Source: Candidatus Limnocylindria bacterium
Lineage (GTDB): Bacteria > Chloroflexota > Limnocylindria > QHBO01
Direction of reading: 5' to 3'
Length of the DNA stretch: 64,000 nucleotides
Assembly: GCA_038209995.1 (NCBI GenBank)
Contig: JBBQXD010000003.1
Location: 89,079 to 153,078, forward strand
Shown here: in pieces, positions 2,842-43,297 of the stretch
How positions within the stretch are numbered: position 1 is the stretch's first letter
How the letters are laid out: every line of letters starts with the position of its first letter
The notes under the pieces: model-generated
Told to the model about the DNA's origin: nothing
Databases searched by the model: none
What the model saw: only the letters and a program-made list of their open reading frames with translations
Program-made: the position numbers and the translations under genes

Positions 2842-3315
2842 ATGAGCCGGCCGGCGAACACTCCTTTGATTTTCTCCGATGTGTGCATTCAGGCGGCGCT
2901 CTTGGCCCGGGGAGACTGGATGGGCGTCGACGAACTCATGATCGACTACGAATACATCGCGCGGTCGACGCCATCGTTCGACAGTCTCAGCTTTGGAATC
3001 GCGCGGCTGGTCGCGAACGGCTTGGTGCAGGTCCGCGATGAGCCGAGTGAATCGTTCATGATGAGAGCCACGCAACGTACGTTTCGCACCGCTACGCCCG
3101 GTGTGGGCGTGATCGATTTCGCGATTCAATTGGCCCACGAGCTCGGAGTGACCCTCGACGAAAATCGGGAGGAAGATCGTTCTCATGGACGTGTCGACGG
3201 CCTAACCTACACGGAATACCAGAAGGCGGCGGGCGCCGGCGGCGAGTGGAAACATCTCGTTGACTCGCGCCTCCCGGGGGCACGCGGGCGCGACGGGCGC
3301 CCCCGCGAGGGCTGA
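2842..3315 (+). CDS. hypothetical protein (lower-GC islet)
   Basis: ATG preceded by GAGGAGG at the correct spacing. Local GC is visibly lower than in flanking genes. No recognisable motif. Confidence 0.4.
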   Translation: MSRPANTPLIFSDVCIQAALLARGDWMGVDELMIDYEYIARSTPSFDSLSFGIARLVANGLVQVRDEPSESFMMRATQRTFRTATPGVGVIDFAIQLAHELGVTLDENREEDRSHGRVDGLTYTEYQKAAGAGGEWKHLVDSRLPGARGRDGRPREG

Positions 3316-3463
3316 TCATGGTGGCACGGAAGGGCTCGCCGTGGCCGTGGCTTGTCGGCGGCGGTGGAGCGGGGGCTCTCTGGTGGCTCGCAAAGGGACT
3401 CGCGCCACTCTGCGGCCTGGGTGCCCCCGTCTGCGCGTGGGCGCTTTGAGCCCCGGAGCCCCA

Positions 3464-4153
3464 ATGAGCAGAAGTGTCCGCATCGTCGGGAGCCCGTCGA
3501 GTTGGCTCGTGATGCTGGAATTGCTCAGCCTCGATGGGGTCAGACCGTTCTGGTCACGGCTCAGCATCCGAGTGCGCCGCCAGCGTGAGCTTCAATCGAT
3601 GCTCCGCGACATGGTGCTCAAGCTTCGCGCGGCCCATGCCCGTCGCAATCGCGCCGCGATGTCTCGTGAGATCATTGCCGGACTGGAGCGCATCCGTCAG
3701 GAGATCTCAAGTCCAGCGGCCGAATCGATCGTGCGGCTTCGTGACCTCGAGGAACGATGGATGGTGCGCCCCGGTCGTGATTGGATCGGTGCTCTGTGGC
3801 TGTACGTCTACCAGCCCCGCAGCCAAGACACGTTGTCGTCCGGCATTCGGCCACAGATCCGGCGCTTGATCAAAGCTCGACTGGCCAGTGACCTGTGGCT
3901 CGATGAGACTGCTGCTGCGCTGTTCCCCGCGAAGAGCACGTGGGACGCTGAAATCGTCGAATCTAGATTCGTGGGCGGCGGACCGGATGCAATGGCTAAC
4001 GCCCTTCGAGAGTTACTCGAAGCGAGGGCGTATGCTTCCTTGCGCCGCGCCCTCAGACAGCACCTCAAAGGGACCGAGCGAGAGGCGTTGCGATCATGGG
4101 CGGTCACGTACGCGCGTGAGGACGGGGTGCGACCGGAGTTGCCACGTCTCTGA
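3464..4153 (+). CDS. hypothetical protein (lower-GC islet)
   Basis: 229-aa ORF starting MSRSVRIVGSP and rich in Arg/Leu. No recognisable motif. The track ORF 3260..4153 is trimmed to the internal ATG. Confidence 0.4.
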   Translation: MSRSVRIVGSPSSWLVMLELLSLDGVRPFWSRLSIRVRRQRELQSMLRDMVLKLRAAHARRNRAAMSREIIAGLERIRQEISSPAAESIVRLRDLEERWMVRPGRDWIGALWLYVYQPRSQDTLSSGIRPQIRRLIKARLASDLWLDETAAALFPAKSTWDAEIVESRFVGGGPDAMANALRELLEARAYASLRRALRQHLKGTEREALRSWAVTYAREDGVRPELPRL

Positions 4154-4169
4154 ATGGTCAAGGCCCCCG

Positions 4170-4745
4170 GCCGGCGCCGCCACCTGCGCCAGCCCAAACC
4201 TCACCCACGACTCCGCCGGCCGCACCGCGACCTGGAACGGCTGGACGTTCGGGTATGACGCCGACGGCCGGATGGTGAGCGCCTGCAAGAGTCCCACCGG
4301 CGCGCCGCGCTACGACACGGTGACCTTCGCCTATGACGGCGCCGGCCATAGGCACCCAGATCAGGGCGACCTCCGCCGCGGGTGCGGTCGCCACGACCGC
4401 TTTCGGCTACGCGGGCGCCGCGATCACCTCCGAGACGCTGACCGACGCATCCCACCGTCGGGCACTGTGGTGCGGCGCTACGCCGTCGACGGCGACGGGT
4501 CGATCGTGAAGGTCAGCATCCCGGGCGGCGAACCCGAGGCCGGTGACTGCCTCGTCACCTGGAACTGCCACGGCGACGCGCTCAACCTGCCGCGCCTCAA
4601 CGCCGACGGCACCACCACCCTCGCCAACAGCTACGCCTATTCATCAGGGGTGCGCCGACGACGTTCACCGACAACGGCATCGGCGACCTCGGCTTCCGCT
4701 TCCTGTACGTCGGCCGCCACGACGTGCAGTGGGACAATCCGTTAG
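4170..4745 (+). pseudogene. RHS/YD-repeat protein remnant (frameshifted, ends in an in-frame TAG)
   Basis: YD-repeat matches: TWNGWTFGYDADGRMVSA, YDTVTFAYDGAG, VRRYAVDGDGSIVKVSIPGGE, TLANSYAYSS. Alternate frames carry further YD-like text (AFGYAGAAITSETLTD; GFRFLYVGRHDVQWDNPLGL). The frame is broken by at least two shifts and a TAG at 4743-4745. Confidence 0.55.
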
Positions 4746-4763
4746 GGCTCGGCCTGGCCTTAC

Positions 4764-5324
4764 ATGCACGCCCGCCACTACGCGCCGGCGCTGGGACGGT
4801 TCCTGCAGCCTGACCCGGCTCGGCTGGAATCGAATAGTTACGGCTATGCCCGAGAAAATCCATTGACGAGGATGGATGCCAGCGGAACGGAGAGTTGGAC
4901 ACCGAACTCCTGGGAGTGGTCCGCTTGCTTCAAGTATCCGATCGCATGCGCCAGGTGGATGCGCGCCTCCTTCCTGGCACTGGTCGCAACCAGGACCATC
5001 TCGAGCGAGCGGCAACGCAATGCCATGAGACACTGCATCTGGAACTGCCTCATGACGGAGTCAATGAGGGCCTCGTGGGCGAATCTCTGGGCATACCTGC
5101 ACGAGGCTGGCGGTCCATTCCAACCGTTGGATACGCGTGTCGACCTCCACAATAACCGCGTAGGCGTGCTGTTCGGGCAGCAGGCCGGATTCTGGTTCTC
5201 GGGTCTTCCATGGGCGGCTGGCTTTTGCGAGGGCGTATGGAGGCGGGGACGGCTCTGGTATGTGGAATACAACAGAGTGGTCCGCACGTCCCTCGGAGTT
5301 AATGTGCCCAACGGTGCGCGCTAG
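4764..5324 (+). CDS. RHS C-terminal tip: core-end motif plus variable putative toxin domain (orphan)
   Basis: Same frame as the upstream remnant. Begins within the RHS core-end consensus (Y)MHARHYAPALGRFLQPDPARLESNSYGYARENPLTRMDASG. This is followed by about 140 aa of lower-GC sequence with conserved-looking His/Asp/Asn residues (AMRHCIWNCLM, AYLHEAGGP, DTRVDLHNNRVG). Confidence 0.6.
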   Translation: MHARHYAPALGRFLQPDPARLESNSYGYARENPLTRMDASGTESWTPNSWEWSACFKYPIACARWMRASFLALVATRTISSERQRNAMRHCIWNCLMTESMRASWANLWAYLHEAGGPFQPLDTRVDLHNNRVGVLFGQQAGFWFSGLPWAAGFCEGVWRRGRLWYVEYNRVVRTSLGVNVPNGAR

Positions 5325-5343
5325 GTAAATCGGCACAAAGACG

Positions 5344-5793
5344 ATGTTGAAGCAGATCGGGCTCGACCGGATCGTCCGGGCAGTTGTTCTCGTCGAAGTC
5401 ATCGGTATCATCGTGCTGGCTGGCTCGATCTTGTTCGATCCTCCTCCCCCGTACCGCACCGACATCGAGCGAGGGGTTTGGACCCTGATCAGCATTGACG
5501 GCCACGTTCAGCCGCCACCCGCACCACAGCTTGCTTTCCGAGGCGACGGCATGACTTGGACGAGCGACTGCCAAACGATCACCGGGGATGCGGTTCGCGA
5601 CAGTGACGGATCGATGATGCTCATTGGTGGCTTTCGGGTGCTGGCTGCTCGATGTTCACCTCAGCAAGACGCCGCCGAAAGGGCGCTCTTGGACGCGCTC
5701 GCGACTACCGAAACGTGGAGCGTCGAGACTGAGGACCTCATCGTGCTCCGCGGGGGTCGACACTCCATCACGCTGGCCCGGATCCCATCCTGA
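5344..5793 (+). CDS. membrane-anchored META/HslJ-like domain protein; candidate immunity protein for the upstream RHS tip
   Basis: Starts 20 nt after the tip stop. N-terminal TM helix (IVRAVVLVEVIGIIVLAGSILF), then a META-like pattern (WTLISIDG ... GSMMLIGGFRVLAARCSPQQ ... ETWSVETEDLIVLRGG). Lower GC. Confidence 0.5.
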   Translation: MLKQIGLDRIVRAVVLVEVIGIIVLAGSILFDPPPPYRTDIERGVWTLISIDGHVQPPPAPQLAFRGDGMTWTSDCQTITGDAVRDSDGSMMLIGGFRVLAARCSPQQDAAERALLDALATTETWSVETEDLIVLRGGRHSITLARIPS

Positions 5794-5802
5794 GCTGCCA
5801 GC

Positions 5803-6243
5803 GTGGGTCGCTCCTATCCCGGACAGCGCATAACGTTGCCGGATACGGTCGGCCGCCCGCCTCGTGACGCACGCCTCTCGGGCCGTGAGGCTTGGAAGGC
5901 TGCCGCTCTGCCAACTGAGCGGCGCGTCTCGCCTGATTTGGGGCGCATAACGATCATCCTCGCCAACCCGTCGAAGCCAGAAAGGCCCACCGCGGGCACC
6001 ACGATCCAAGAGCAGACGCGACAGTGCCTCGCGAACATCGCCGCCATCCTCAAGGCGGCCAGCAGCTCGATGGAGCAGGTCGTGAGCGCCACGTTCATCC
6101 TGCGCCGGCCTGAGGAACTCGCCGGCATGAACGAGGAGTTGGCGCGCTGGTTCCCGGTCGACCCGCCGGCCCGCCAGGGCGCGAAGGACCCGCTCGAGGT
6201 CGGCGACGCCCTCATCTCGATCGCGGCCATCGCGGTGACCTGA
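5803..6243 (+). CDS. ridA: RidA/YjgF/TdcF family (reactive enamine/imine deaminase)
   Basis: Aligns by eye to RidA over EQTRQCLANIAAILKAASSSMEQVVSATFIL ... ARWFP ... PARQGAKDPLEVGDALISIAAIAV. GTG start. Confidence 0.6.
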   Translation: MGRSYPGQRITLPDTVGRPPRDARLSGREAWKAAALPTERRVSPDLGRITIILANPSKPERPTAGTTIQEQTRQCLANIAAILKAASSSMEQVVSATFILRRPEELAGMNEELARWFPVDPPARQGAKDPLEVGDALISIAAIAVT

Positions 6244-6346
6244 GCCAGCGTCTCGCGTCACCCCGGCAGCGTCCCGGGGCCGGTGTATCGTATCGGCCTT
6301 CCCGTGGATGCCAGCCGTCCCGACCAGCTTCGGAGGACCGATCTTC

Positions 6347-7195
6347 ATGGCCCGAATCGTCCGCGCGGCGCTCCTCCAGGCGGAGTGGACCGGCGACAAG
6401 GAGTCGATGATCACCAAGCACGAGAGATACGCGCGCGAGGCGGCCGCCCAGGGCGCGAAGGTCATGTGCTTCCAGGAGCTCTTCTACGGCCCCTACTTCT
6501 GCCAGGTGCAGGACCCGCAGTACTTCAGCTACACCGAGCACATCCCCGACGGCCCGACCACGCAGCGCATGCAGGCGCTCGCCAAAGAGACCGGGATGGT
6601 CCTCATCGTGCCCATGTACGAGGAGGACGAGCAGACCACCGGCATCTACTACAACACCGCCGCGGTCATCGACGCCGACGGCTCGTACCTGGGCAAGTAC
6701 CGCAAGACCCACATCCCGCACGTGAAGGGCTTCTGGGAGAAGTACTACTTCCGCCCCGGGAACATGGGCTACCCGGTGTTCGACACTGCGGTCGGCAAGG
6801 TCGGCGTCTACATCTGCTACGACCGCCACTTCCCGGAGGGCGCCCGCGCGCTGGGGCTCAATGGGGCGGAGATCGTGTTCATCCCCTCCGCGACCTCGCG
6901 CGGCCTCTCCGAGTACCTGTGGCGCGTCGAGCAGGTGAGCCATGCGCTGGCCAACGGCTACTACGTGGGGACGATCAACCGGGTCGGCATCGAGCCGCTC
7001 GGCGATGACGACTTCTACGGGCAGTCGTACTTCGTGGATCCGCGCGGGCAGTTCATCGGCGACGTCGGCGACTCGCACGACGAGGAGCTCATCGTCCGCG
7101 ACCTCGACCTCGACAAGATCACCGAGGTGCGCCAGACGTGGCAGTTCTTCCGCGATCGGCGCCCGGACGCGTACGACGACCTCGTCCGACCGTAG
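6347..7195 (+). CDS. beta-ureidopropionase (beta-alanine synthase; carbon-nitrogen hydrolase family)
   Basis: Long collinear match to beta-ureidopropionases: KTHIPHVKGFWEKYYFRPGNMGYPVFDTAVGKVGVYICYDRHFPEGARALGLNGAEIVFIPSATSRGLSEYLWRVEQVSHALAN. Nitrilase-type E-K-C triad context. GGAGG RBS before the ATG at 6347. Confidence 0.75.
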   Translation: MARIVRAALLQAEWTGDKESMITKHERYAREAAAQGAKVMCFQELFYGPYFCQVQDPQYFSYTEHIPDGPTTQRMQALAKETGMVLIVPMYEEDEQTTGIYYNTAAVIDADGSYLGKYRKTHIPHVKGFWEKYYFRPGNMGYPVFDTAVGKVGVYICYDRHFPEGARALGLNGAEIVFIPSATSRGLSEYLWRVEQVSHALANGYYVGTINRVGIEPLGDDDFYGQSYFVDPRGQFIGDVGDSHDEELIVRDLDLDKITEVRQTWQFFRDRRPDAYDDLVRP

Positions 7196-7199
7196 ACCG

Positions 7200-8216
7200 A
7201 TGGACTTCGGGTTCACGCTGAAGCCGGATCATCGGTTCGAGCGCAGCGTCGATCTCGCACGCCGGGCGGAGGGCAACGGCTTCAGCTACGGGTGGATGTT
7301 CGATAGCCACGTGCTGTGGCGCGATCCGTACCCGCTGCTGACCCTCATCGGCGCGGCGACCGAGACGATGCGCCTCGGAACCTGCGTCACGAACCCAGCC
7401 ACCCGCGACGTCACCGTCACCGCCTCCGCGCTCGCGACCCTCAACGAGGTGACCGGCGGACGCATGGTGCTGGGCATCGGTCGCGGCGACAGCGCGCGGC
7501 GGGTGATGGGCAAGCCGCCGACCACGGTCGCCTACATGGAGGAGTGCTGCCGCATCGTGCGCGCGCTCACCGCGGGCGAGGCGGTGACCCTCGATGGCAC
7601 CGAGATCCGGCTGCCGTGGGCCACGCACGGGCCGGTGCCGATCTGGGTGGCCGGCTATGGACCGATGGCGCTGGCCGCAGCCGGCCGGGTGGCGGACGGC
7701 ATCATCCTCCAGCTCGCCGATCCGGACATCATCCGCTGGTGCATGGGCTTCGTCCGCGCGGCGGCCGAGGAGGCGGGGCGTGACCCGGACGCGATCGAGG
7801 TCATGGCTGCCGCCGCGGCCTACATCTCCGACGACGTCGAGGACGCCCGCGAGCGGGTGCGCTGGTTCCCGGCCCTCGTCAGCAACCACGTCATGAACCT
7901 CATCAACAAGTACCCGAAGGAGGAGCTGCCCGACGCCCTCTGGCGCTACGTCGAGAACCGCGAGGGCTACGACTACCACCACCACGCGGAGGTGGGGAGC
8001 GACAATGCCCGTTTTGTGACCGACGAGATCGTCGACCGCTTCACGATCGTCGGGCCGCCGGCCGCCCACCGTGAGCGGCTGGCCGAGCTCCGCGACGCCG
8101 GGGTCACGCAGCTCAACGTCTACCTCATGAACGGGAACGAGGAGGAGCAGCTCGACCTCTACGAGCCGATCATCCAGCGTGAATCGGCCTCGGAGGCGTC
8201 CGCTCCGACGAGCTGA
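7200..8216 (+). CDS. luciferase-like monooxygenase (LLM) family oxidoreductase, probable F420-dependent (Mer-like)
   Basis: LLM/Mer-like pattern: MVLGIGRGD, PIWVAGYGPMALAAAGRVADGIILQ, and conserved C-terminal TIM-barrel segments. Start MDFGF is 5 nt after the upstream stop. Confidence 0.7.
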   Translation: MDFGFTLKPDHRFERSVDLARRAEGNGFSYGWMFDSHVLWRDPYPLLTLIGAATETMRLGTCVTNPATRDVTVTASALATLNEVTGGRMVLGIGRGDSARRVMGKPPTTVAYMEECCRIVRALTAGEAVTLDGTEIRLPWATHGPVPIWVAGYGPMALAAAGRVADGIILQLADPDIIRWCMGFVRAAAEEAGRDPDAIEVMAAAAAYISDDVEDARERVRWFPALVSNHVMNLINKYPKEELPDALWRYVENREGYDYHHHAEVGSDNARFVTDEIVDRFTIVGPPAAHRERLAELRDAGVTQLNVYLMNGNEEEQLDLYEPIIQRESASEASAPTS

Positions 8217-9900: not shown

Positions 9901-11280
9901 TTGCGCACCCTGATCACCGGTGGAACCATCGTCAACGCCGATGCCACGACGAGGGCGGACCTGCTCGTTGACGGGGAGCGCATCGCCCTCATCGGTACCG
10001 ATCTCGCCGTCACCGCCGACGTCACCATCGACGCGACCGGGAAATGGGTCATCCCCGGGGCGATCGATGTCCATACCCACATGCAGCTGCCCTTCGGCGG
10101 CACGTTCGCTAAGGACACCTTCGAGACCGGCACCCGTGCCGCTGCCTTCGGTGGCACCACCACGATCATCGACTTCGCGGTCCAGCCCCGCGGCGGCTCG
10201 CTGCGCCAGGGATTGGACGCCTGGCACGAGAAGGCCGATGGAAGGGCGTGCATCGACTACGCGTTCCACATGATCGTCAGCGACGTGCGCGACGACGTGC
10301 TCGCCGAGATGGACAGCCTCGTCGACGAGGGGGTGACCAGCTTCAAGCTGTTCACCGCCTACCCAGGCGTCTTCTACAGCGACGACGGCGCGATCCTCCG
10401 GGCCATGCAGCAGACCGCGAAGAACGGCGGCCTGATCATGATGCACGCCGAGAACGGGATGGCGATCGACGTCGTAGCCGGACAGAACGTGGCCGCGGGA
10501 CACACCGATCCGTACTACCACGGCACGTCGCGGTCGCCGGTCTTCGAGGGCGAGGCGACGAACCGCGTCATCCGCCTTGCGGAGGTCGCCGGGTCGCCGG
10601 TCTACATCGTCCATCTCTCGGCGCGCGAGGCGCTCAACGAGGTCCGACGGGCACGGGCCGAGGGGCTGCCGGCGTTCGCCGAGACGTGTCCGCAGTACCT
10701 GTTCCTGTCGCTCGAGGACATGGGCAACGGGTTCGAGGGCAGCAAGTTCGTGTGCTCGCCTCCACTGCGCCCCGCCGATCACCAGGAGGAGTTGTGGACG
10801 GGGCTCCGCCGAGACGACCTGCAGGTCGTCTCGACCGACCATTGCCCGTTCGACTTCCACGGTCAGAAGGAGATGGGACGCGGCGACTTCCGAAAGATCC
10901 CGAACGGCCTGCCGGGCGTCGAGAACCGCGTCGACCTGCTTCATTCCGGCGGCGTGCGCGAGGGACGGCTGACGCCGAACCGATGGGTGGAGGTCATCTC
11001 CGCCGCGCCGGCGCGGATGTTCGGCCTCGCGCAGAAGGGCGCCATCGCGGCCGGCCTCGATGCCGACATCGTGGTCTACGACCCGGGCCGCGCCCACACC
11101 ATCAGCGCCGCGAGCCACCACATGGACGTCGATTACTCGTGCTACGAGGGCTGGGAGGTCACCGGCGGCGCGGACATGGTCATGAGCCGCGGCAAGACGA
11201 TCGTGGATGGTGACGCGTGGAAGGGCGCCGCCGGCGATGGCCGCTTCGTGAAGCGCCAGCGATCCGTGCACCTCCGCTGA
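9901..11280 (+). CDS. dihydropyrimidinase / D-hydantoinase (cyclic amidohydrolase)
   Basis: Metal-binding HTH (IDVHTHMQLPFGG) and DFAVQ. The carbamylated-Lys region and later motifs (HLS, DHCPF, HxxAE) are collinear with hydantoinases. TTG start (LRTLITGGTIVN) with GGGAGG 8 nt upstream. The track ORF starts at 9859. Confidence 0.8.
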   Translation: MRTLITGGTIVNADATTRADLLVDGERIALIGTDLAVTADVTIDATGKWVIPGAIDVHTHMQLPFGGTFAKDTFETGTRAAAFGGTTTIIDFAVQPRGGSLRQGLDAWHEKADGRACIDYAFHMIVSDVRDDVLAEMDSLVDEGVTSFKLFTAYPGVFYSDDGAILRAMQQTAKNGGLIMMHAENGMAIDVVAGQNVAAGHTDPYYHGTSRSPVFEGEATNRVIRLAEVAGSPVYIVHLSAREALNEVRRARAEGLPAFAETCPQYLFLSLEDMGNGFEGSKFVCSPPLRPADHQEELWTGLRRDDLQVVSTDHCPFDFHGQKEMGRGDFRKIPNGLPGVENRVDLLHSGGVREGRLTPNRWVEVISAAPARMFGLAQKGAIAAGLDADIVVYDPGRAHTISAASHHMDVDYSCYEGWEVTGGADMVMSRGKTIVDGDAWKGAAGDGRFVKRQRSVHLR

Positions 11281-15051: not shown

Positions 15052-15083
15052 GAGAGAGGCCGGCCGGCGTGCCGGCCTCTCTC
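15052..15083. terminator. bidirectional intrinsic-terminator-like hairpin (GAGAGAGGCCGGC / GCCGGCCTCTCTC)
   Basis: Perfect 13-bp inverted repeat with a 6-nt loop, 17 nt after the + gene stop. It overlaps the stop codon of the convergent cinA gene. Confidence 0.55.
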
Positions 15084-16215
15084 ATGTGCGCGGGGCGGTG
15101 AGCGCTCTGCGGACCGCATCCAGCGCGGCGTAGGCAGCGCGGCGCTGGCGCTGCGGGCCGCTGCCGTGGATCGAGAGCTCGACCATCGGAACACTGATGA
15201 CGCCGCTCAGCGCGACGTGAACGCGGCTTCGACCATGGACGCCTGCCTCGAGCAGCGAGAGCTGCAGCACGGCGTCCGCGAGCGGCACGGCCGCCAGCCC
15301 GCCGACGTCGAGCATGCCGCCGACATAGGTCGCGGCGCGGTCGACCACGTCGGCGCCGGCCAGGATCGCGAGCAGGGCGCCCTCGGTATCCGCCTCCCAG
15401 GAGGCGGCTGAATCGGCACCGGCGGCGCCGAGCGCGGCCAGCGCCACGGCGCCGAGCTCGTCGGCATCGGTCCCCCAGGCGTCGTCGTCGAGCGCGGCGA
15501 GGCAGCGGTCGACGAGCGCGTCGAGCGGCGCGTCATCGTCGCGTGACGAGAAGCGGAGATGCACGCCGTCGTCGCGGGCGTAGATGCCGGCCTCGATCTC
15601 GGTCCCGGGGTGCTCGAGCATGTCGCCGAGCAGATCTGCCACCCGGGACTCGCCGAGGCCCCAGGTCTTCACGGTGCGTGTGCGGAGTGGCGCGAGCGCG
15701 AGGCGCCCCCGCAGCCGAGGCACCACCTCGTCGCCCCACATGCGGCGCATCTCGGACGGCACGCCCGGCAGGAGCACGCAGACCGATCCGTCGCGGTCGA
15801 CCCACCAGCCCGATGCCGACCCGATTGGGTTGGCGAGGAGCTCCGCGGACGCGATGCGCATCGCCTGGCGGAGGTTGCTGGCAGGGAAGGCGCCGAGCCC
15901 GCGCCACCGGGCGCGGAGCGCGCGGGCCAGCTCCGGGTCCTCGGCGAGCGGCTCGCCGAGGGCGTCGGCCAGCCCCTCGCGGGTCAGGTCATCGTGGGTG
16001 GGCCCGAGGCCGCCGGTGGCGACGACGAGCACCGTCTCGGAACGCGCCATTGTGAATGCGGCCGCGATGACGGCCCGGTCGTCGGGGAGTGCCCGGATCC
16101 CGCGCAGCTCGACGCCGAGCCGCGCGAGCTCGGCGCCCAGATGCGCCGCGTTCGTGTCGACCGTCTCGCCGCGCAGGATCTCGCTGCCGATGCTGAGGAT
16201 CTGGGCGGTGGCCAT
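15082..16215 (-). CDS. cinA: CinA family protein (MoCF-biosynthesis-like N domain plus nicotinamide-nucleotide amidohydrolase-like C domain)
   Basis: N-terminal AQILSIGSEILRGETVDTNAAHLG and C-terminal CinA domain (SGGLGPTHDDLT ...). 377 aa. Confidence 0.75.
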   Translation of the reverse strand: MATAQILSIGSEILRGETVDTNAAHLGAELARLGVELRGIRALPDDRAVIAAAFTMARSETVLVVATGGLGPTHDDLTREGLADALGEPLAEDPELARALRARWRGLGAFPASNLRQAMRIASAELLANPIGSASGWWVDRDGSVCVLLPGVPSEMRRMWGDEVVPRLRGRLALAPLRTRTVKTWGLGESRVADLLGDMLEHPGTEIEAGIYARDDGVHLRFSSRDDDAPLDALVDRCLAALDDDAWGTDADELGAVALAALGAAGADSAASWEADTEGALLAILAGADVVDRAATYVGGMLDVGGLAAVPLADAVLQLSLLEAGVHGRSRVHVALSGVISVPMVELSIHGSGPQRQRRAAYAALDAVRRALTAPRT

Positions 16216-16330
16216 TCAGGCGACGCGGTCGCGCAACGGGAGGACGACCTCGTCGACCAGCCGCCGCAGGCGATCCGGACTCGACGGGCCGGTCTCGAAG
16301 TCGATGCGCATCGCTGCAGTCTACGGCTGA

Positions 16331-16370
16331 GGCCGCGCCGGCCGCGCCGGCCGCGCCGGCCGCGCCGGCC
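16331..16370. repeat. tandem 9-nt microsatellite (GGCCGCGCC) x about 4.4
   Basis: Perfect copies in the divergent intergenic region between cinA (-) and the F420 operon (+). Confidence 0.8.
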
Positions 16371-16426
16371 ACATCGGGCTACGATGGTCGCTCCGAAAAA
16401 CAGAGCGCATCTTGTTGGAGACCCGA

Positions 16427-16840
16427 GTGGCAGAGACGATCACGACGAGCACGGTCCTCGGCCCCGCACTGCGGGAGTGGCTCATCGCCGAGCTCCGGTT
16501 CCCAGTGATGGCCACCATTCGCAGCGACGGCATGCCGAGCCAATCGGTCGTGTGGTTCGACCTCGACCCGCAGGACGACAACTCAATCCTCCTCAACACG
16601 AAGGCGGGGAGGGTCAAGCATCAGCACCTGCTGCGGGACCCGCGGATCAGCCTCTGCTTCGAGGACGGCTACGACTACGTCACCCTCGAGGGGCGGGTCG
16701 AGCTCGTCGACGAGCCGGTGCAGGGCCTGCGGGTCATCCAGGACCTCGCCCGTCGCTACGACGACGATCCATCGGTCTTCGACGGCCAGCAGCGCGTCAC
16801 GATCCACATGCGCATCGAGCGCGTGATTCGGCATGACTGA
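16427..16840 (+). CDS. PPOX-class (pyridoxamine-5'-phosphate-oxidase-like) probable F420-dependent enzyme
   Basis: Split-barrel pattern (PVMATIRSDGMPSQSVVWFDLD ... SILLNTKAGRVKHQHLLRDPRISLCFEDG ... YVTLEGRVELV). GTG start with GGAGA upstream. The track starts at 16412. Confidence 0.65.
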   Translation: MAETITTSTVLGPALREWLIAELRFPVMATIRSDGMPSQSVVWFDLDPQDDNSILLNTKAGRVKHQHLLRDPRISLCFEDGYDYVTLEGRVELVDEPVQGLRVIQDLARRYDDDPSVFDGQQRVTIHMRIERVIRHD

Positions 16841-17783
16841 GGCGGCCGATGGCAGCCTGAAGCTCGGCGCGCTGTTCTGGAACCAGTACACCGCGTGGCC
16901 TGCGTTCCGGTCCGCTGCGATGCGTGCCGACGAGCTCGGCTTCGACGACCTGTGGACCTGGGACCACCTGTACCCGATCGTGGGGAACCACGAGGGACCG
17001 ATGTTCGAGGCGTGGCTGACCCTCGCCGCGTGGGCGGAGGCGACCTCGCGGGCAAGGCTGGGGCTGATGGTCGGCGCGAACACGTTCCGCAACCCGGCGC
17101 TGGTGGCCAAGATGGCGACCACCCTCGACCACATCTCCGGCGGCCGCGCGATCCTCGGCATCGGCGGGGCGTGGTTCGAGACCGAGCATGCCGCCTTCGG
17201 GATCGAGTTCGGCGGCTCGCCCGGGGAGCGGCTGCGCTGGCTCGACGAGGCGGCGCGCATGATGCGCGGCATGCTCCACGGGGAGCGGCCGTCCGGCGAC
17301 CGCTACTATGCCGCTCGCGAGGTGCGCAACGACCCGCCACCTGTCCAGGCCCACCTGCCGCTGCTGATCGGCGGCGGCGGGGAGCGGCGCACGCTGCGGA
17401 CCGTCGCCCGCTACGCGGATGCCTGCAACTTCGGCGGCGGCTTCGAGAACGTCCGGCACAAGGACGAGGTGCTCCGCCGCCACTGCGACGAGATCGGCCG
17501 CGACGAGGCGGAGATCGAGCGCACGGTGGGCGTCGGCGTCTGCATCATCCGCGACGATCCGGCGGAGGCGCGCCGAGTTCTCGAGGCGACCTTCGCGCGC
17601 AATGGCGACGCCCGCCCGTGGCAGAGCCAGCTGGTGGGGACGCCGGAGCAGGTCGCCGAGCAGCTCCGCCCGTTCCTGGGGATCGGATTCCGGCACCTCA
17701 TCGTGGGCTTCCCGTCGCCGCACGACGCGGTGTCGCTCGAGCGATTGGCGACCGAGGTCCGCCCGCTGCTCGCCGGCTCATGA
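16833..17783 (+). CDS. LLM-class F420-dependent oxidoreductase
   Basis: LLM TIM-barrel pattern (DDLWTWDHL, RARLGLMVGANTFRNPALVAKMATTLDHISGGRAILGIGGAW). Overlaps the upstream gene by 8 nt and the downstream cofD by ATGA. Confidence 0.7.
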   Translation: MTEAADGSLKLGALFWNQYTAWPAFRSAAMRADELGFDDLWTWDHLYPIVGNHEGPMFEAWLTLAAWAEATSRARLGLMVGANTFRNPALVAKMATTLDHISGGRAILGIGGAWFETEHAAFGIEFGGSPGERLRWLDEAARMMRGMLHGERPSGDRYYAAREVRNDPPPVQAHLPLLIGGGGERRTLRTVARYADACNFGGGFENVRHKDEVLRRHCDEIGRDEAEIERTVGVGVCIIRDDPAEARRVLEATFARNGDARPWQSQLVGTPEQVAEQLRPFLGIGFRHLIVGFPSPHDAVSLERLATEVRPLLAGS

Positions 17784-18715
17784 AGGTCGCCCTGCTCGCC
17801 GGCGGCACGGGCGGGGCGAAGCTGGCACATGGCTTCGCGCAGGTCCTCGCACCCGGCGAGCTGTCGGTGATCGTCAACGTCGCCGATGACACCGAGCTCC
17901 ACGGCCTGCACGTCAGCCCTGACGTCGACAGCGTCCTCTACACGCTCGGGGAGCTCCTCGACCGGGAGACCGGATGGGGCGTCGCCGGCGACACGCGCAC
18001 GGCGCTCGGCATGCTCCGCCGGCTCGGGGCGGAGCGGACCTGGTTCCAGATCGGCGACGCCGACCTCGCCACCCACGTGCGCCGCACGCAGCTCCTCCGT
18101 GACGGCGCGTCACTGACCGATGCCACGGCCGCCATGGCCGCCGCGCTCGGCATCCGCGCCCGCATCCTGCCCGCCACTGACGATCGGCTGCGCACGATGA
18201 TCGAGACCGATGCCGGCGAGCTCGACTTCCAGGACTACTTCGTCGCGCGCCGCCAGGAGCCGGCCGTGACCGGGGTGCGCCTCGACGGCGAGGGATCAGC
18301 CCGCGCCACCGATGCCGCGATCGAGGCGGTGCGCACGGCGGACCTCGTGGTGATCGGTCCCTCCAACCCGGTCGTCAGCATCGGTCCGATCCTCGCCCTC
18401 GCGGAGCTGCGTGACGCCGTCGCCGCCGCGGGCGCGGTGGCCGTCAGCCCGATCATCGCCGGCCGCGCGCTCAAGGGCCCGGCCGACCGGATGCTCGCCT
18501 CGCTGGGGGAGGAGGTCACCGCCGTCGGCGTCGCGCGGCGCTACGCGGGGATCGTCTCGTCCGTCGTCCTCGACACCGCGGACGCGTCGCTCGGCCCGGA
18601 GATAGGCGGCCTGGGAATGACGCCGCGGGTGCTGCCGACGATCATGCGCACCGATGCCGACCGGGCTGCCCTCGCAGCGGCGCTCCTCGAGGGCGGCGGT
18701 ATGCTCGACGCGTGA
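17780..18715 (+). CDS. cofD: 2-phospho-L-lactate transferase (LPPG:Fo 2-phospho-L-lactate transferase) CofD/FbiA
   Basis: MKVALLAGGTGGAKLAHGF ... VIVNVADDTELHGLHVSPDVDSVLYTL is the diagnostic CofD N-terminus. The track ORF 16895..18715 is a longer fused frame and was rejected. Confidence 0.85.
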   Translation: MKVALLAGGTGGAKLAHGFAQVLAPGELSVIVNVADDTELHGLHVSPDVDSVLYTLGELLDRETGWGVAGDTRTALGMLRRLGAERTWFQIGDADLATHVRRTQLLRDGASLTDATAAMAAALGIRARILPATDDRLRTMIETDAGELDFQDYFVARRQEPAVTGVRLDGEGSARATDAAIEAVRTADLVVIGPSNPVVSIGPILALAELRDAVAAAGAVAVSPIIAGRALKGPADRMLASLGEEVTAVGVARRYAGIVSSVVLDTADASLGPEIGGLGMTPRVLPTIMRTDADRAALAAALLEGGGMLDA

Positions 18716-19314
18716 ACGAGCGCGTCCGGATCATCGTCCCGCATCGCGGCCTGGCCGCGGCGAAGACCCGCCTCGCCCCGGTGCTCGACCCCGGTGAGCG
18801 GGTTGCCCTGGCGCGCGAGCTGCTGGAGCGGGTGCTCCGCGTGGCGCGCGAGGCGGTCGACGATGTGGTGGTCATCACGCCCTCCGAGGCCCTGGCACGC
18901 GTCGTCGAGCCGCTCGGCGCGGTGGTCGTCGTGCAGCGCGGGATGGGGCTGAACACCGGGCTCGAGCAGGCGCGACGCGCCGCGGTCGAGGACGGGATCC
19001 GCCTCCTGGGCGTGCTCCACGGCGATCTCCCGAACCTCCGCGCCGATGACGTGGCGGCCCTCCTGGCGGCCGCTCCCCAGCCACGGGGCCTGGCCATCGC
19101 GCCCGATCGCACCGGGACGGGGACGAACGGCCTCGCCATGCGCCCCGTGGACGTCATCGGCTTCGCGTTCGGAGAGGGGAGCTTTGCCGCGCACCATGCC
19201 GCCGCCGACGCGGCAGGCATTCCCGTCGTCGTCGTGGACCGGTCGGGGCTCGCGTTCGATCTCGACACCCCGTCCGACCTCGCCCGCTGGCTCGAGCTCG
19301 GGGACGCGGCGTGA
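18712..19314 (+). CDS. cofC: 2-phospho-L-lactate guanylyltransferase CofC/FbiD
   Basis: RVRIIVPHRGLAAAKTRLAPVLDPGERVALARELLERVL and the later G-rich nucleotidyltransferase segments. ATGA overlap with cofD. Confidence 0.75.
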   Translation: MNERVRIIVPHRGLAAAKTRLAPVLDPGERVALARELLERVLRVAREAVDDVVVITPSEALARVVEPLGAVVVVQRGMGLNTGLEQARRAAVEDGIRLLGVLHGDLPNLRADDVAALLAAAPQPRGLAIAPDRTGTGTNGLAMRPVDVIGFAFGEGSFAAHHAAADAAGIPVVVVDRSGLAFDLDTPSDLARWLELGDAA

Positions 19315-20090
19315 CGTCGGGCTCGCTCGAGATCCTCGCGCTGGACGGGATCCCCGAGGTCCAGGCCGGCGACGACCTGCCAGCGCTCATCGCCGCGGCG
19401 GCCGGGGCCGCCGCCATCGGTCTGTCCGACGCCGACGTCCTGGTCGTCACCCAGAAGGTGGTGAGCAAGGCGGAGGGCCGGCTCGTCGATCTCGCCACCG
19501 TCGAGCCGCGGCCATGGGCGGTCGAGTTTGGCGCCCGGTGGGGCAGGGATGCGCGGCAGGTGGAGCTCGTCCTCCGCGAGTCGGCCGAGATCGTGCGGCT
19601 CGGTCCGCACGGGCTCATCATCTGCCGCACCCATCACGGCTTCGTGTGCGCGAACGCCGGCGTCGACCTCTCGAACGTTGGCACCGGTGACGCGGCAACC
19701 CTCCTGCCGGTCGACCCCGATGCATCCGCCGCCGGGATCCGCGACGGCCTGCGCGCCCGGCTGGGCGTCGCGCCGGCGATCATCGTCAGCGACTCGTTCG
19801 GGCGGCCATGGCGGAACGGGATCGTGAACGTGGCGATTGGTGCGGCGGGCATCGAGCCGCTCCTCGACCTGCGCGGGCGGCCGGACGCGGCGGGGCGCGT
19901 CATGCGCGCCACGATCACCGCGATCGCGGATCAGCTGGCGTCCGCAGCGGATCTCGTCGGCGGCAAGGTCGCGCAGCTGCCGGTCGTCATCGTCCGCGGC
20001 TACGCATACCGGCTGGGCGACAGGGGCGCCGCCGGCGCTGCGGGTGCTGCGGCGCTCGTGATGGATCGCGCCGCGGACCTCTTCCCGTAG
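19311..20090 (+). CDS. cofE: coenzyme F420-0:L-glutamate ligase CofE (FbiB N-domain homologue)
   Basis: LEILALDGIPEVQAGDDLPALI ... VLVVTQKVVSKAEGR ... IICRTHHGFVCANAGVDLSN matches CofE family motifs. 4-nt overlap with cofC. Confidence 0.8.
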   Translation: MTSGSLEILALDGIPEVQAGDDLPALIAAAAGAAAIGLSDADVLVVTQKVVSKAEGRLVDLATVEPRPWAVEFGARWGRDARQVELVLRESAEIVRLGPHGLIICRTHHGFVCANAGVDLSNVGTGDAATLLPVDPDASAAGIRDGLRARLGVAPAIIVSDSFGRPWRNGIVNVAIGAAGIEPLLDLRGRPDAAGRVMRATITAIADQLASAADLVGGKVAQLPVVIVRGYAYRLGDRGAAGAAGAAALVMDRAADLFP

Positions 20091-20170
20091 GTCGAGCACG
20101 CGTCTTCGAGGAGGGGCTCCACCGCGGACGGACGGTGGCCATCGGTCTACCAGGGACGCTCAGCATCCCT

Positions 20171-20259
20171 TCGTGACAGCGTGCCTCACATGCGCCATGT
20201 GCAGCTCGTGACAGCGTGCCTCACATGCGCCGGGTGCAGCATGTGCGTCACGAGCGACC
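20171..20259. repeat. tandem palindromic repeat element (2 x 35 nt unit plus partial), GTGAC-N7-(G/C)TCAC family
   Basis: tcgtgacagcgtgcctcacatgcgcc(a/g)(t/g)gtgcagc occurs twice in tandem, then atgtgcgtcacgagcgacc. Contains the internal palindrome CACATGCGCCATGTG. Related to the repeat at 53778-53889. Confidence 0.7.
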
Positions 20260-20293
20260 TACCCGCGGCGCGTGGACCCGCCCGGGAGGAGGG

Positions 20294-20629
20294 TCAGTTC
20301 GGCTGAAGGAAGAGGGCGACGATCTCGCCACCCTCCACGCGGAAGTTCGCCTCGACGTTCATCGGCGGCACGCCGGGCCGCATGACGGTCACCTCGGCGA
20401 TGTAGCTGCTGCCCATGTTGCGGCTGTCGTTGGTGAACATCCGGAAGCCGTCGCCGGCCCGGACGAACCAGCCGCCGACCTTGTCGCGACCGCGCAGGTT
20501 CGTCCGCTCGTCGGAGCCGGGCACGCTGATGCCGAGCACGGCATGCTCGGCGAAGAGCTCGACGGCCTTCTCGCGGCGGTCGTCGTTGATGAGCTCGAGG
20601 AACAGGTCGACGGTCTCGGTGGCTCCCAT
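20294..20629 (-). CDS. NTF2-like / SnoaL-like small protein
   Basis: 111 aa in a cone-shaped alpha+beta family pattern (VDLFLELINDDRREKAVELFAEHAVL ... EANFRVEGGEIVALF). Confidence 0.5.
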   Translation of the reverse strand: MGATETVDLFLELINDDRREKAVELFAEHAVLGISVPGSDERTNLRGRDKVGGWFVRAGDGFRMFTNDSRNMGSSYIAEVTVMRPGVPPMNVEANFRVEGGEIVALFLQPN

Positions 20630-22739: not shown

Positions 22740-24395
22740 ATGCTCGGGGGTGCCCACCCAGTGCCGTCCTTCGGTGACCTTGCCGCCCAGTTCCTCGACG
22801 AGGAGCACGCCGCCAACCCGGTCCGTGCCTCGTACCTCGGCCTGAGCGACTACGACGATCAGCTCGACGACCTGTCCGCCGCAGCCATCGAGGCCGATGC
22901 TGCCCGGTCGGCGGCCTGGCTCGACCGGTTCGCCGCGCTCGGCGATGACGAGCTGACGTTCGACGAGGCGATCGACCGCGATCTCGCCGTCGCCCAGCTC
23001 CGGGAGCGCGCGATCTACCACGAGTGGGAGATCTGGCGCCGCCAGCCGGACCTCTACCTCAACCCCGGCATGCGGGGCGTCTTCGTCCTCTTCCTCCACC
23101 GGCTGCGGCCGGAGGGCGAGCTGGCAGCCGCGGCCGCCGCCCGCCTGCGGGCAGTGCCGGCAAACCTTGCCGCCGGCCGCGCGAACCTGCGACCCGCGAT
23201 GGTGTCGCTCGTCATCCTCGACCGGGCGATCAACCAGGCCCGCGCCGGCGCCCGCTACGTCCGCGACCTGCTGCCGGCCGACGTCGCCGAGGAGCATCGC
23301 GGCGACCTGGCCGCTGCCGGCGCGGAGGCGGCGCACGCATTCGAGGCCTATGCCGCCTTCCTCGAGGAGATGCGCCCGGCGGCGACCGGGGAGTGGGCGT
23401 TCGGCGAGGAGAACTACACCGCGGTCCTGCGCGACGCGGAGCACCTCGACCTCGACACGCGGGCGCTCCATCAGCGCGGCCTCGACCAGGTGGAGCTGCT
23501 GCTCGGCGAGATGCGCCGCCTCTCGAGCGATATCGCCGGCCACGACGACTGGAAGCGGCTCGTCAGCGAGCTCAACGCCGATCGCCCGGCCGACCCGGAG
23601 GCGATGCGCGTCGGGTACGAGGTATGGACCGAGCGCGCGCGCCAGTTCCTCCACGACCGCAACCTCGTCTCCTTTCCGGCCGGCGAGGAGTGCCTGGTGG
23701 TGCCATCGCCGCCCTTCCAGCGGCCCGTGATCGCGGTCGCCAGCTACGTCGCGCCGCCGCACTACGCGGCCACGTTCCGCGGCCACTTCTTCGTGCCGTT
23801 CCCACCGGATGGCGCGTCGGAGGAGGAGACCGGGAAGCGGCTCGAGTCGAACGCGTACCCGAGCATTCCCACCACCGCCGTGCACGAGGCCTACCCCGGA
23901 CATCACTGGCACCTCGCGATGGCGAAGACGAACCCCTCGCCGATGCGCGCCGAGTTCGGGACGAGCTACTTCGCGGAGGGCTGGGCCCTCTACGCGGAGG
24001 AGATGATGACGAACGCCGGCTTCTACGACGATCCGCGCCACGTCCTCTACCAGGTCGAGGCACGGCTCTTCCGCGCCGCCCGGATCGTCGTCGACACCGC
24101 CCTCCACATGGGTGAGATGAGCCACCCCGGCGCGGTCGCCTACATGCTGGCCCACAGCTCGCTCACCGAGCCGACGGCGATCGCGGAGGTCACCCGCTAC
24201 TGCTCGTGGCCGACGCAGGCCAGCTCGTATCTCACCGGCGCGCTCGAGATCGCGCGGATCCGCGACGCGTTCTTCGCCGCGCGCGGCGCCGAGGCCGGTG
24301 ATGTCGACACGCTGCGCGACTTCCATGACGCGATCGCCGGGGCAGGAACGCTGCCGATCGCGCTCGCGGAGCGGGCGGCGCTGGCCAGGGTCTGA
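22740..24395 (+). CDS. DUF885 family protein (putative metallopeptidase-like)
   Basis: DUF885 hallmark HEAYPGHHWH plus a YFAEGWALYAEEMM segment. 551 aa. Confidence 0.7.
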   Translation: MLGGAHPVPSFGDLAAQFLDEEHAANPVRASYLGLSDYDDQLDDLSAAAIEADAARSAAWLDRFAALGDDELTFDEAIDRDLAVAQLRERAIYHEWEIWRRQPDLYLNPGMRGVFVLFLHRLRPEGELAAAAAARLRAVPANLAAGRANLRPAMVSLVILDRAINQARAGARYVRDLLPADVAEEHRGDLAAAGAEAAHAFEAYAAFLEEMRPAATGEWAFGEENYTAVLRDAEHLDLDTRALHQRGLDQVELLLGEMRRLSSDIAGHDDWKRLVSELNADRPADPEAMRVGYEVWTERARQFLHDRNLVSFPAGEECLVVPSPPFQRPVIAVASYVAPPHYAATFRGHFFVPFPPDGASEEETGKRLESNAYPSIPTTAVHEAYPGHHWHLAMAKTNPSPMRAEFGTSYFAEGWALYAEEMMTNAGFYDDPRHVLYQVEARLFRAARIVVDTALHMGEMSHPGAVAYMLAHSSLTEPTAIAEVTRYCSWPTQASSYLTGALEIARIRDAFFAARGAEAGDVDTLRDFHDAIAGAGTLPIALAERAALARV

Positions 24396-29622: not shown

Positions 29623-31305
29623 ATGTTGTTGCAGCCTCTCGTCGATGATCTTCTCGCCGGCTGGTTCCGGCACGACCCTGTCCTGGCCACCGAGCTCGGG
29701 AACCACGATCACGACGGATCGTGGCCGGACCTGACGCCGGCGGGGCACGAGGCGCGGGTCGGGTTCCTGCGCGACGCCGAAGCGCGGTTCGCGGCCCTCG
29801 ATGCCGCGGACCTCACCCGCGATGAGCAGATCGACCGCAGGATCGTGCTCGACAGCATCGCCTCCGCCCGCTTCTCCGACGAGGTGCTGCGAGAGCCGAC
29901 CTGGAGCCCGATCAGCTACGTCTACCTCTTCGGCGGCGGCCTGTTCAGCCTCCTGTCACGCGAGTTCGCGCCGCTCGAGACCCGGCTCGCGAGCGCCGCC
30001 TCGCGGCTCCGAGCGCTCCCGGCGGCCCTCGATGCCGCCCGGGCGACGCTGGCGGCTGGGGGCCCGCGGCCAGTGAGCGCCTTCCACACCGAGAAGGCGA
30101 TCGCGACGATCGGTGGGGTCGCGGACCTGGCGCGCGCCGCCGCCGCTGAGGGGGAGCGTGTGAACGACGATGGGCTGCGGACGGAGCTGCACGAGACGGC
30201 CGAGGCCGCGGCCCGCGCCGTGGAGGCGTTCCGCGACTGGCTGCGCGACGAGCTCGCGCCCCGGGCCACCGGCGACTTCCGGCTCGGCGCAGACCTGTAT
30301 CGGCAGAAGTTCCGGCACGCGCTGAAGACCGAGGTCAGCGTCGAGGATCTCGAACAGCGCGCCACCGCGGCGTTCGCGCATGTTCGCGGCGAGATGGTGC
30401 GCCTCGCCCGTCAGCTCTGGCCGGACTGGATGCATGACGCACCGATGCCGGCCGACGAGACCGAGCTCGTGCGCCGCGTGCTCGACGCGATCAGCGCCGA
30501 CCACCCGCTCGCCGGCGAGCTGCTCGACTTCTGCCGCGCCGAGCACGCGCGGATCGAGGCCTTCATCCGCGAGCGCGACCTCATCGGCCTGCCAGACGAG
30601 CCGATGCAGATCATCTGGACCCCGCCGTTCCTGCGCGCCTTCGGCGGCGCGATGCTCATCCCGCCGGGGCCGCTCGACTTCGGGCTCGACAGCTTCTTCG
30701 CCATCACGCCGCCGCCGGACGACTGGACCGATGCGCAGGTCGAGTCGATGCTCCGCGAGGACAACGCGCGCCAGCTGCGGCTGCTGACGATCCACGAGGC
30801 GATGCCGGGGCATTACCTGCAGCTGGCCTATTCGAACCGCAGCGCATCCCTGGTCCGCGCGATCTTCCAGTCCGGTGTGTTTGCGGAGGGCTGGGCGGTC
30901 TACGTCACGCAGGTGATGATGGACGTCGGCTACGGGGCCGACGACCCGGCGCTCATGCTCGTCCATTGGAAGTTCTACCTGCGCGCGATCACGAACACGA
31001 TGATGGACATCGGCCTCCACGCCGGCGCCATGGACGAGGCCAACGCGATGCGGCTCATGGTCGACGGTGGCTGGCAGGAGGCGTCCGAGGCGAGCGAGAA
31101 GTGGTCACGGGCGCGCCTGTCGAGCACGCAGCTCTGCGAGTACTTCCTCGGCAGCGTCGAGATGCACGACCTGGAGGCCGAGGCGCGGCGTCGTGCCGAG
31201 GCCGACGGTCGCGAGTTCGTCTACCGCCCCTTCCTCGAGACGGTCATCGGCCACGGCACGCCGTCAATGCCGGTCATCCGCGAGATCCTCTTCGGCGCCG
31301 GCTAG
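29623..31305 (+). CDS. DUF885 family protein (second paralogue)
   Basis: HEAMPGHYLQLAY and FAEGWAVYVTQVMM are collinear with the 22740 paralogue. Start at Met58 of the track ORF (MLLQPLVDD). Confidence 0.65.
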   Translation: MLLQPLVDDLLAGWFRHDPVLATELGNHDHDGSWPDLTPAGHEARVGFLRDAEARFAALDAADLTRDEQIDRRIVLDSIASARFSDEVLREPTWSPISYVYLFGGGLFSLLSREFAPLETRLASAASRLRALPAALDAARATLAAGGPRPVSAFHTEKAIATIGGVADLARAAAAEGERVNDDGLRTELHETAEAAARAVEAFRDWLRDELAPRATGDFRLGADLYRQKFRHALKTEVSVEDLEQRATAAFAHVRGEMVRLARQLWPDWMHDAPMPADETELVRRVLDAISADHPLAGELLDFCRAEHARIEAFIRERDLIGLPDEPMQIIWTPPFLRAFGGAMLIPPGPLDFGLDSFFAITPPPDDWTDAQVESMLREDNARQLRLLTIHEAMPGHYLQLAYSNRSASLVRAIFQSGVFAEGWAVYVTQVMMDVGYGADDPALMLVHWKFYLRAITNTMMDIGLHAGAMDEANAMRLMVDGGWQEASEASEKWSRARLSSTQLCEYFLGSVEMHDLEAEARRRAEADGREFVYRPFLETVIGHGTPSMPVIREILFGAG

Positions 31306-39335: not shown

Positions 39336-39401
39336 GGCAAGCATCCTCGCCTGATCGGCACCCTGGCACTGCGCCGGGGGCGCGCGGTGGCCGAACGTTA
39401 G

Positions 39402-39752: not shown

Positions 39753-39796
39753 CCTGCCATGGGCTCGAGGTACGCGGAGAGCTCGCCGAGGCCCCG

Positions 39797-43284: not shown

Positions 43285-43297
43285 GTTCGCAAACCTC

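Follow-up and report, generated by a model that had tools for sequence, protein, structure and literature searches.

A probable F420 tail-assembly operon headed by two oxidoreductase genes, typical of Candidatus Limnocylindria (Chloroflexota)

Described F420 gene clusters and the Limnocylindria locus

In mycobacteria, the genes for biosynthesis of the cofactor F420 are spread over three loci, fbiA-fbiB, fbiC and fbiD, and FbiB carries a dehydro-F420 reductase domain (PMC8498797). The pathway of Thermomicrobium roseum and the Chloroflexi is described as consisting of CofC, CofD, a stand-alone CofE and the likewise stand-alone nitroreductase FbiE (Braga et al. 2020, as related in PMC8498797 and PMC8764529), and the legend of Fig. 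10 in a 2021 review (Grinter and Greening; PMC8498797) names FDOR and LLHT genes as neighbours of those for F420 biosynthesis. Here we analyse a 64-kb stretch of DNA, hereafter the window, from Candidatus Limnocylindria (Chloroflexota), an uncultured soil lineage, in which five consecutive plus-strand open reading frames (ORFs; n = 5, about 16427-20090) encode a PPOX-class and an LLM-class oxidoreductase followed by CofD, CofC and CofE. The products, with lengths in amino acids (aa) and the activated substrates 2-phospho-L-lactate (2-PL) and phosphoenolpyruvate (PEP), are as follows:

16427-16840, plus strand: PPOX-class protein (FDOR-B, split beta-barrel), 137 aa; TIGR03618, PF01243
16833-17783, plus strand: luciferase-like LLM/LLHT oxidoreductase, 316 aa; PF00296, TIGR03560
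17780-18715, plus strand: cofD (fbiA), 2-phospho-L-lactate (or enolpyruvyl) transferase, 311 aa; TIGR01819, PF01933
18712-19314, plus strand: cofC (fbiD), guanylyltransferase activating 2-PL or PEP, 200 aa; TIGR03552, PF01983
19311-20090, plus strand: cofE, F420-0:gamma-glutamyl ligase, 259 aa; TIGR01916, PF01996

As far as the Thermomicrobium roseum pathway is set out in the papers cited above, the locus resembles it in belonging to the same phylum, in having separate cofC, cofD and single-domain cofE genes and in a CofC predicted to be of the 2-PL/PEP type, and it differs in having no FbiE in the operon or anywhere in the window. In Thermomicrobium and Dehalococcoidia loci FbiE comes after cofC and cofE lies elsewhere, whereas here cofC is followed by cofE and cofD is preceded by two oxidoreductase genes. 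The three Cof proteins have their counterparts in mycobacterial FbiD (CofC), FbiA (CofD) and the N-terminal domain of FbiB (CofE). Unlike in mycobacteria, however, the three cof genes overlap in one unit, and CofE is without the reductase domain: against the FbiB model NF009810 it scores 225 bits, below the cut-off of 304, over profile positions 10-242 of 449, which is the N-terminal ligase half only.

The two oxidoreductases also have described relatives. PPOX shares the split beta-barrel fold and membership of TIGR03618 with the mycobacterial FDOR-B proteins Rv2074 and Rv1155 (biliverdin reductases), Rv2991 and MSMEG_3380, but its identity to its best structural matches is just 25-31%, with TM-scores of 0.57-0.67. 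The mycobacterial FDOR-B genes are not known to be linked to the fbi genes. LLM is closest to the F420-dependent LLMs of TIGR03560 (Rv1855c type), its best family match, with which it shares the TIM-barrel luciferase-like fold (PF00296), although it falls 3 bits under the curated cut-off of that family; to our knowledge, no member of TIGR03560 has been characterised. In the clusters of Fig. 10 of PMC8498797, which include FDOR, LLHT, Fno and Fgd genes, the adjacency of F420 biosynthesis genes to genes of user enzymes is likewise seen, a likeness that extends as far as the figure legend goes.

Five overlapping genes and their products

We are fairly confident that the five genes form an F420 'tail-assembly' operon together with two co-expressed oxidoreductases of F420 families, and that they are probably translationally coupled. 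The window, of about 71% G+C, holds some 55 genes, called from third-position G+C and then scanned with Pfam. Every junction within the block is an overlap, of 8 nucleotides (nt) between PPOX and LLM (16833-16840, the ATG of LLM lying inside the end of PPOX) and of 4 nt between LLM and cofD (17780-17783, ATGA), cofD and cofC (18712-18715, GTGA) and cofC and cofE (19311-19314, GTGA), just as a first-pass annotation of this DNA had given them (4-8 nt). Since 5 of the 27 same-strand neighbour pairs outside the block overlap, four successive overlaps, the longest such run in the window, exceed the background of this genome. The exact sequences of the 316-, 311-, 200- and 259-aa products are on record from one NCBI contig; independent gene calling has therefore chosen the same starts and overlaps.

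No clear Shine-Dalgarno sequence precedes the starts of LLM and cofD, from which, together with the stop/start overlaps, we infer translational coupling. Coupled translation would suit CofC and CofD, because the intermediate that they share is unstable and the two enzymes work only as a pair (PMC8764529). A scan from 15.0 to 21.8 kb returned no sigma-70-like promoter and no plus-strand terminator, with an E. coli-type consensus that has low power in DNA of a 71% G+C member of the Chloroflexota; the internal signals that, according to the first-pass annotation, might have split the genes into separate transcripts did not turn up in it. A divergent cinA-like gene on the 5' side and a convergent ORF on the 3' side make the five genes a self-contained directon, and given real overlaps, opposite-strand flanks and no match to an internal promoter or terminator, a single operon is the natural reading.

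The gene identities hold as well: PPOX, CofD, CofC and CofE all score above curated cut-offs, and the suspicion that the cof genes might have been misassigned by profile hidden Markov models (HMMs) is not borne out. PPOX reaches 95 bits against TIGR03618 (cut-off 79.05) and also matches PF01243 in the NCBIfam and Pfam scans; it is probably an F420H2-dependent oxidoreductase. Its start is most likely GTG 16427 and not TTG 16412, which is probably 15 nt too far upstream, because a GGAG sits at the right distance (6 nt) ahead of the former and the resulting length of 137 aa is that of the source record and of nearly all homologues. Of the block as first delimited, the five plus-strand ORFs thus stand, and the start at 16412 should probably be moved to 16427. 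In an AlphaFold model built with database homologues (pLDDT 84.6), the best Foldseek matches in the Protein Data Bank (PDB) are F420-bound Rv2074 and Rv1155, followed by MSMEG_3380 and Rv2991, and the top entries, 5JAB and 4QVB, are both F420-bound. By sequence, the nearest solved structure is Rv2991, at 39 bits. Of the five proteins, PPOX shows the lowest conservation, with 49-59% identity in most relatives and 74% in the closest one (locus L001).

LLM matches PF00296 at 153 bits and reaches 228.3 bits against TIGR03560 (213 residues, E 1e-67), where the cut-off is 231.4. Thus, of the 'two F420-dependent enzymes' named at first pass, PPOX clears the cut-off of its family and LLM comes in just under. 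F420-class LLM families account for each of its four best NCBIfam matches (E 1e-67 to 4e-34), as against 2e-20 for the best family that uses flavin mononucleotide (FMN), and LLM is probably F420-dependent. The best PDB match by sequence is 3RAO, an uncharacterised Bacillus 'luciferase-like monooxygenase' (86 bits), with FGD1 at 62 bits; the matches to Fgd, Mer, Adf and fHMAD are remote throughout (38-62 bits). LLM is the best conserved protein of the operon, being 73-83% identical across relatives and 75-87% identical to its best 120 database relatives. Fusions of PPOX or LLM to a Cof domain were not found, all homologues listed being single-domain proteins.

CofD scores 316 bits against TIGR01819 (cut-off 257.45), residues 4-302 lying on profile positions 2-299 of 301, and 166 bits against PF01933. 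CofC scores 158 bits against TIGR03552 (cut-off 105) and matches PF01983; in alignment with FbiD of Mycobacterium tuberculosis (Mtb; 6BWG), it keeps the Mg2+/substrate residues D116, S166, D188 and D190 and has R in place of K17. CofC proteins of the 3-phosphoglycerate (3-PG) type are marked by M, H and S (M91, H145 and S162 of Mrhiz-CofC), and the 2-PL/PEP type differs at these positions (PMC8764529). Using these residue criteria, with 7P97 as the 3-PG-specific reference, we aligned the protein to 6BWG and 7P97 and found that L aligns with FbiD L92, T with Msmeg T152 and G with FbiD G163, so that on these residues CofC is of the 2-PL/PEP type. A 3PG-F420 route, which would need no reductase, is therefore unlikely, as CofC has L/T/G and not M/H/S. 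CofE scores 254 bits against TIGR01916 (cut-off 180.65), with PF01996 as its sole Pfam domain and no PF00881, the FbiB-type C-terminal nitroreductase domain. Among solved structures it comes closest to F420:glutamate ligases of the CofE type, some 250 aa long (2PHN, 7ULD and 2G9I), and by its domain content it is of the single-domain, stand-alone type. For all three cof genes, the chosen start and the beginning of the HMM alignment lie just a few residues apart.

By analogy with the characterised families, CofC would activate 2-PL or PEP with GTP, CofD would move the activated group onto the deazaflavin Fo to yield F420-0 or dehydro-F420-0, and the single-domain CofE would then add the gamma-glutamates. 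PPOX and LLM, at the head of the operon, would most likely consume or recycle F420 and be made together with the cofactor. Fo synthase must be encoded elsewhere in the genome, and the same probably holds for a dehydro-F420 reductase, should PEP be what CofC activates. The first-pass annotation had already placed cofG/H (FbiC) outside the window, and we agree: the Pfam scan of the roughly 55 gene calls found no radical-SAM protein of the CofG/CofH/FbiC kind, and the uncalled stretches (about 2.6-5.9 kb) contain only RHS-like fragments.

Gene order in relatives and the dehydro-F420 reductase

We searched for CofD among 185,579 species genomes and mapped the five window proteins onto the 80 resulting loci. 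The closest relatives are metagenome-assembled genomes (MAGs) of Candidatus Limnocylindria, at no more than 83% identity, followed by other Chloroflexota and by Rubrobacter. Sixty of the loci have at least 2.5 kb upstream of cofD, and PPOX and/or LLM is found there in 35 of them: both genes in 20, PPOX alone in 14, where it usually abuts cofD, and LLM alone in 1. The other 25, with neither gene, come mainly from Rubrobacter, other Actinomycetota, Dehalococcoidia and some Thermomicrobiales. Among close relatives, taken as those with CofD identity of 58% or more and 1.9 kb or more upstream, PPOX is present in 13 of 13 and LLM too in 10 of the 13. The bias of selecting by cofD was countered by fetching 80 metagenome loci via PPOX, with an alignment of 8 sequences; in 48 of the 57 with enough flank, LLM, cofD or cofE adjoins PPOX (this includes locus L091, which a distance filter had missed). 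The layouts vary (PPOX-cofD, PPOX-LLM-cofD, cofC-PPOX and PPOX-cofE), and PPOX-(LLM)-cofD-cofC-cofE is the usual one in Limnocylindria and in many other Chloroflexota.

Two claims of the first-pass annotation we do not retain. The arrangement had been called unusual, yet the same order recurs in 35/60 cofD-selected and 48/57 PPOX-selected loci, and clusters of this kind appear in the Fig. 10 legend of PMC8498797. The two oxidoreductases had further been tied to a physiologically central F420 function; what ties them to it is linkage, and their nearest solved structures score just 39 and 86 bits. In the literature library searched, no paper names both Limnocylindria and F420.

The overlaps are conserved to different degrees. 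PPOX and LLM overlap in 29 of 41 relatives, 22 of them by the same 8 nt, cofC and cofE in 52 of 66, and cofD and cofC in 35 of 77. The junction between LLM and cofD overlaps least frequently, in just 10 of 35, with a median gap of 19 nt and gaps of up to about 125 nt (L001).

Two variants of the cluster were seen in relatives. Many Limnocylindrales and Thermomicrobiales loci (L025, L031, L034, L036, L044, L046, L047, L049, L051, L055, L059, L063, L069, L075-L077 and others) have a second, paralogous LLM gene directly 3' of cofE, which the window does not have; its product is mostly about 38-48% identical to the LLM of the window (24-28% in three Thermomicrobiales/Chloroflexia loci), and the gene never overlaps cofE, the median gap being 38 nt. 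In an Actinomycetota MAG (L058:4697-6094), matches to cofC and cofE lie in frame in one 465-aa ORF, which may reflect a CofC-CofE fusion, or else an overlooked stop codon or an error of assembly.

Mycobacteria and Thermomicrobium use PEP in vivo (PMC8498797, PMC8764529), and a pathway that uses PEP in vivo requires a dehydro-F420 reductase. The Pfam scan found no nitroreductase-family PF00881 protein among the gene calls of the window, and tblastn with four FbiE-like proteins from related loci gave no match in it; with a single-domain CofE and no such nitroreductase, neither the operon nor the 64-kb window encodes a dehydro-F420 reductase. Among the cofD-selected loci, six (L020, L030, L032, L050, L074 and L080, of the Thermomicrobium/HR26 and Dehalococcoidia types) have an FbiE-like gene after cofC, whose product best matches FbiB's C-terminal domain (TIGR03553, 169 bits). 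The gene follows cofC directly in four of the six, a transporter gene intervening in L020 and L050, and there is no PPOX, LLM or cofE nearby. Conversely, 53 cofD-selected loci have sufficient flank on either side of cofD, and in the 32 of these that carry PPOX or LLM upstream there is no FbiE within reach. A profile search for FbiE gave 5258 matches, the best 120 of which are mostly from Ktedonobacteria, Thermomicrobium and Dehalococcoidia and have no bearing on Limnocylindria. FbiE and the PPOX/LLM pair were seen together in a single locus, a six-gene cluster, cofE-FbiE-cofD-cofC-PPOX-LLM, on a Ktedonobacterales-like metagenome contig (L153:2823-7368), and its FbiE is nearly identical to proteins named Ktedonobacterales.

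This distribution leads to an explanation that we regard as unlikely, namely that, in Limnocylindria and related Chloroflexota, PPOX, possibly with LLM, is an F420H2-dependent ene-reductase that converts dehydro-F420-0 to F420-0 in place of FbiE or FbiB's C-terminal domain, with a hydride that would come from reduced deazaflavin supplied by LLM, not from FMNH2, and with PPOX being non-homologous to FbiE. FDORs are known as ene-reductases, which makes a reduction of dehydro-F420 by PPOX chemically plausible, and the complementary occurrence of FbiE and PPOX/LLM across loci is what would be expected if PPOX, with LLM as hydride supplier, had replaced FbiE. The single-domain CofE in a window free of nitroreductase-family genes agrees with this, as do a CofC of the 2-PL/PEP type, for which either a reductase or a source of 2-PL is needed, and a PPOX gene that stays beside cof genes through several rearrangements. 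On the other hand, both systems coexist in the L153 cluster, and Rubrobacter-type clusters have neither FbiE nor PPOX nearby, which makes absence from a cluster weak evidence of absence from a genome; in this genome, the search for FbiE covered the 64-kb window. PPOX is, moreover, unlinked from cof genes in nine loci and is the fastest-evolving of the five proteins, unlike a core biosynthetic enzyme. If PPOX did act in this way, the last reductive step of F420 synthesis would be self-priming, and the pathway map would gain a new branch for a fourth variant. For lineages whose CofE is single-domain and whose cluster is free of FbiE, the PPOX/LLM pair is a cheap, testable candidate reductase.

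It is quite unlikely, in our judgement, that the five genes are adjacent without being one functional unit, with cofD-cofC-cofE as the true operon, as in Rubrobacter, PPOX/LLM as a separately regulated unit upstream, and overlaps that just reflect the compact packing of a high-G+C genome. The core free of PPOX and LLM in 25/60 loci, the LLM-cofD junction as the one that overlaps least often and the short overlaps common in the window outside the block would all fit such a division; but here LLM and cofD have ATGA in common, so that any promoter between them would have to lie in coding sequence, the consensus scan shows no terminator-like site after LLM, and PPOX and LLM are kept beside the cof genes in both sampling directions. 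We give very little credence to the idea that LLM, and perhaps PPOX, depends on FMN and is unrelated to F420, so that the label of two F420 users would be an artefact of family-level HMMs. It would account for the score of LLM under the TIGR03560 cut-off, for 3RAO as its best PDB match by sequence and for the generic names that NCBI gives to many of its relatives, yet it is at odds with the F420-class families that make up the four best matches of LLM, with a PPOX that scores above an F420-family cut-off and has F420-bound structures as its best matches, and with the persistent linkage to F420 biosynthesis genes. The single operon with two F420-family oxidoreductases, which we prefer, has several points against it all the same. 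LLM does lie 3 bits below its family cut-off, many close relatives are named just 'LLM class flavin-dependent oxidoreductase', and its use of F420 and not FMN is likely from profile scores; no substrate can be assigned to PPOX or LLM from sequence or structure matches (25-31% identity; 86 bits). Co-transcription and translational coupling are read from gene geometry, and the closest relative, L001, is without an overlap at the LLM-cofD and PPOX-LLM junctions. Nor is the linkage obligatory, since 9/57 PPOX-selected loci, forming one related group, have unrelated genes after PPOX. We conclude that the operon is real, a lineage-typical and ordinary module, for which the label 'F420 operon' is sound.

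The surrounding DNA and what the operon predicts

The flanks of the block, and a second set of genes in the window that includes an F420-class enzyme, comprise the following features:

5938-6243, plus strand: RidA-like gene, near the second LLM
6308-7195, plus strand: carbon-nitrogen hydrolase gene, overlapping the second LLM by 2 nt
7194-8216, plus strand: second F420-class LLM (TIGR03842, 416 bits, above the cut-off of 295)
9901-11280, plus strand: dihydropyrimidinase/hydantoinase-like amidohydrolase gene, near the second LLM
15082-16215, minus strand: cinA-like gene, divergent 5' neighbour of the five-gene block
16216-16426, plus strand: intergenic region between the divergent cinA-like gene and PPOX, sequence read directly
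16417-16420, plus strand: Shine-Dalgarno sequence GGAG ahead of PPOX
20091-20293, no strand: gap after cofE, up to the convergent gene
20294-20629, minus strand: small, conserved 111-aa ORF, convergent to cofE

The promoter and 5' leader of the block presumably lie within 16216-16426. Directly 5' of the presumed promoter, Tandem Repeats Finder detected a perfect 9-nt tandem repeat, GGCCGCGCC, present in 4.4 copies (16331-16370), and the gap after cofE contains two copies, matching at 94%, of a 35-nt direct repeat, TCGTGACAGCGTGCCTCACATGCGCCAGGTGCAGC (20171-20240); neither repeat has a recognised meaning. The region after cofE folds no more stably than its shuffled counterparts (z = -0.9), the plus strand of 20091-20293 has no predicted intrinsic terminator, and an Rfam scan of the window found no RNA family; no RNA element or attenuator is thus seen in the Rfam scan or in the fold of the region downstream of cofE. 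The convergent 111-aa ORF (cluster 16) has no match in Pfam or NCBIfam. It is kept 3' of cofE, in the same position, in 11 related Limnocylindria loci, and is about 85% identical in L003.

The genes between 5938 and 11280 resemble a cluster for reductive pyrimidine or hydantoin degradation; the dehydrogenase step there might be taken by an F420 enzyme. At about 2600-5900, G+C is lower (65-67%), the coding signal is poor, and ORF fragments carry RHS/YD-repeat-like motifs, such as 'LQPDPARLESNSYGYARENPLTRMDASG' in 4764-5324; this looks like a set of decayed polymorphic-toxin cassettes, possibly acquired horizontally. Two DUF885 paralogues are encoded 5 kb apart on the plus strand (22761-24395 and 29629-31305; Pfam 320 and 329 bits). 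Finally, an acetate/glyoxylate-shunt locus is suggested at 35852-45530, where a gene of the isocitrate lyase family (764 aa) is clustered with genes for a LysR regulator, two acetyl-CoA-synthetase-like proteins and an MFS transporter.

The operon is of modest practical use, as a compact cofD-cofC-cofE cassette together with two highly conserved partner enzymes that are candidates for the screening of F420-dependent biocatalysts. For the biology of the lineage, the operon predicts that Limnocylindria, an abundant uncultured class of soil bacteria, produce and use F420, which would add to the view that F420 is a cofactor common among aerobic bacteria of soil.

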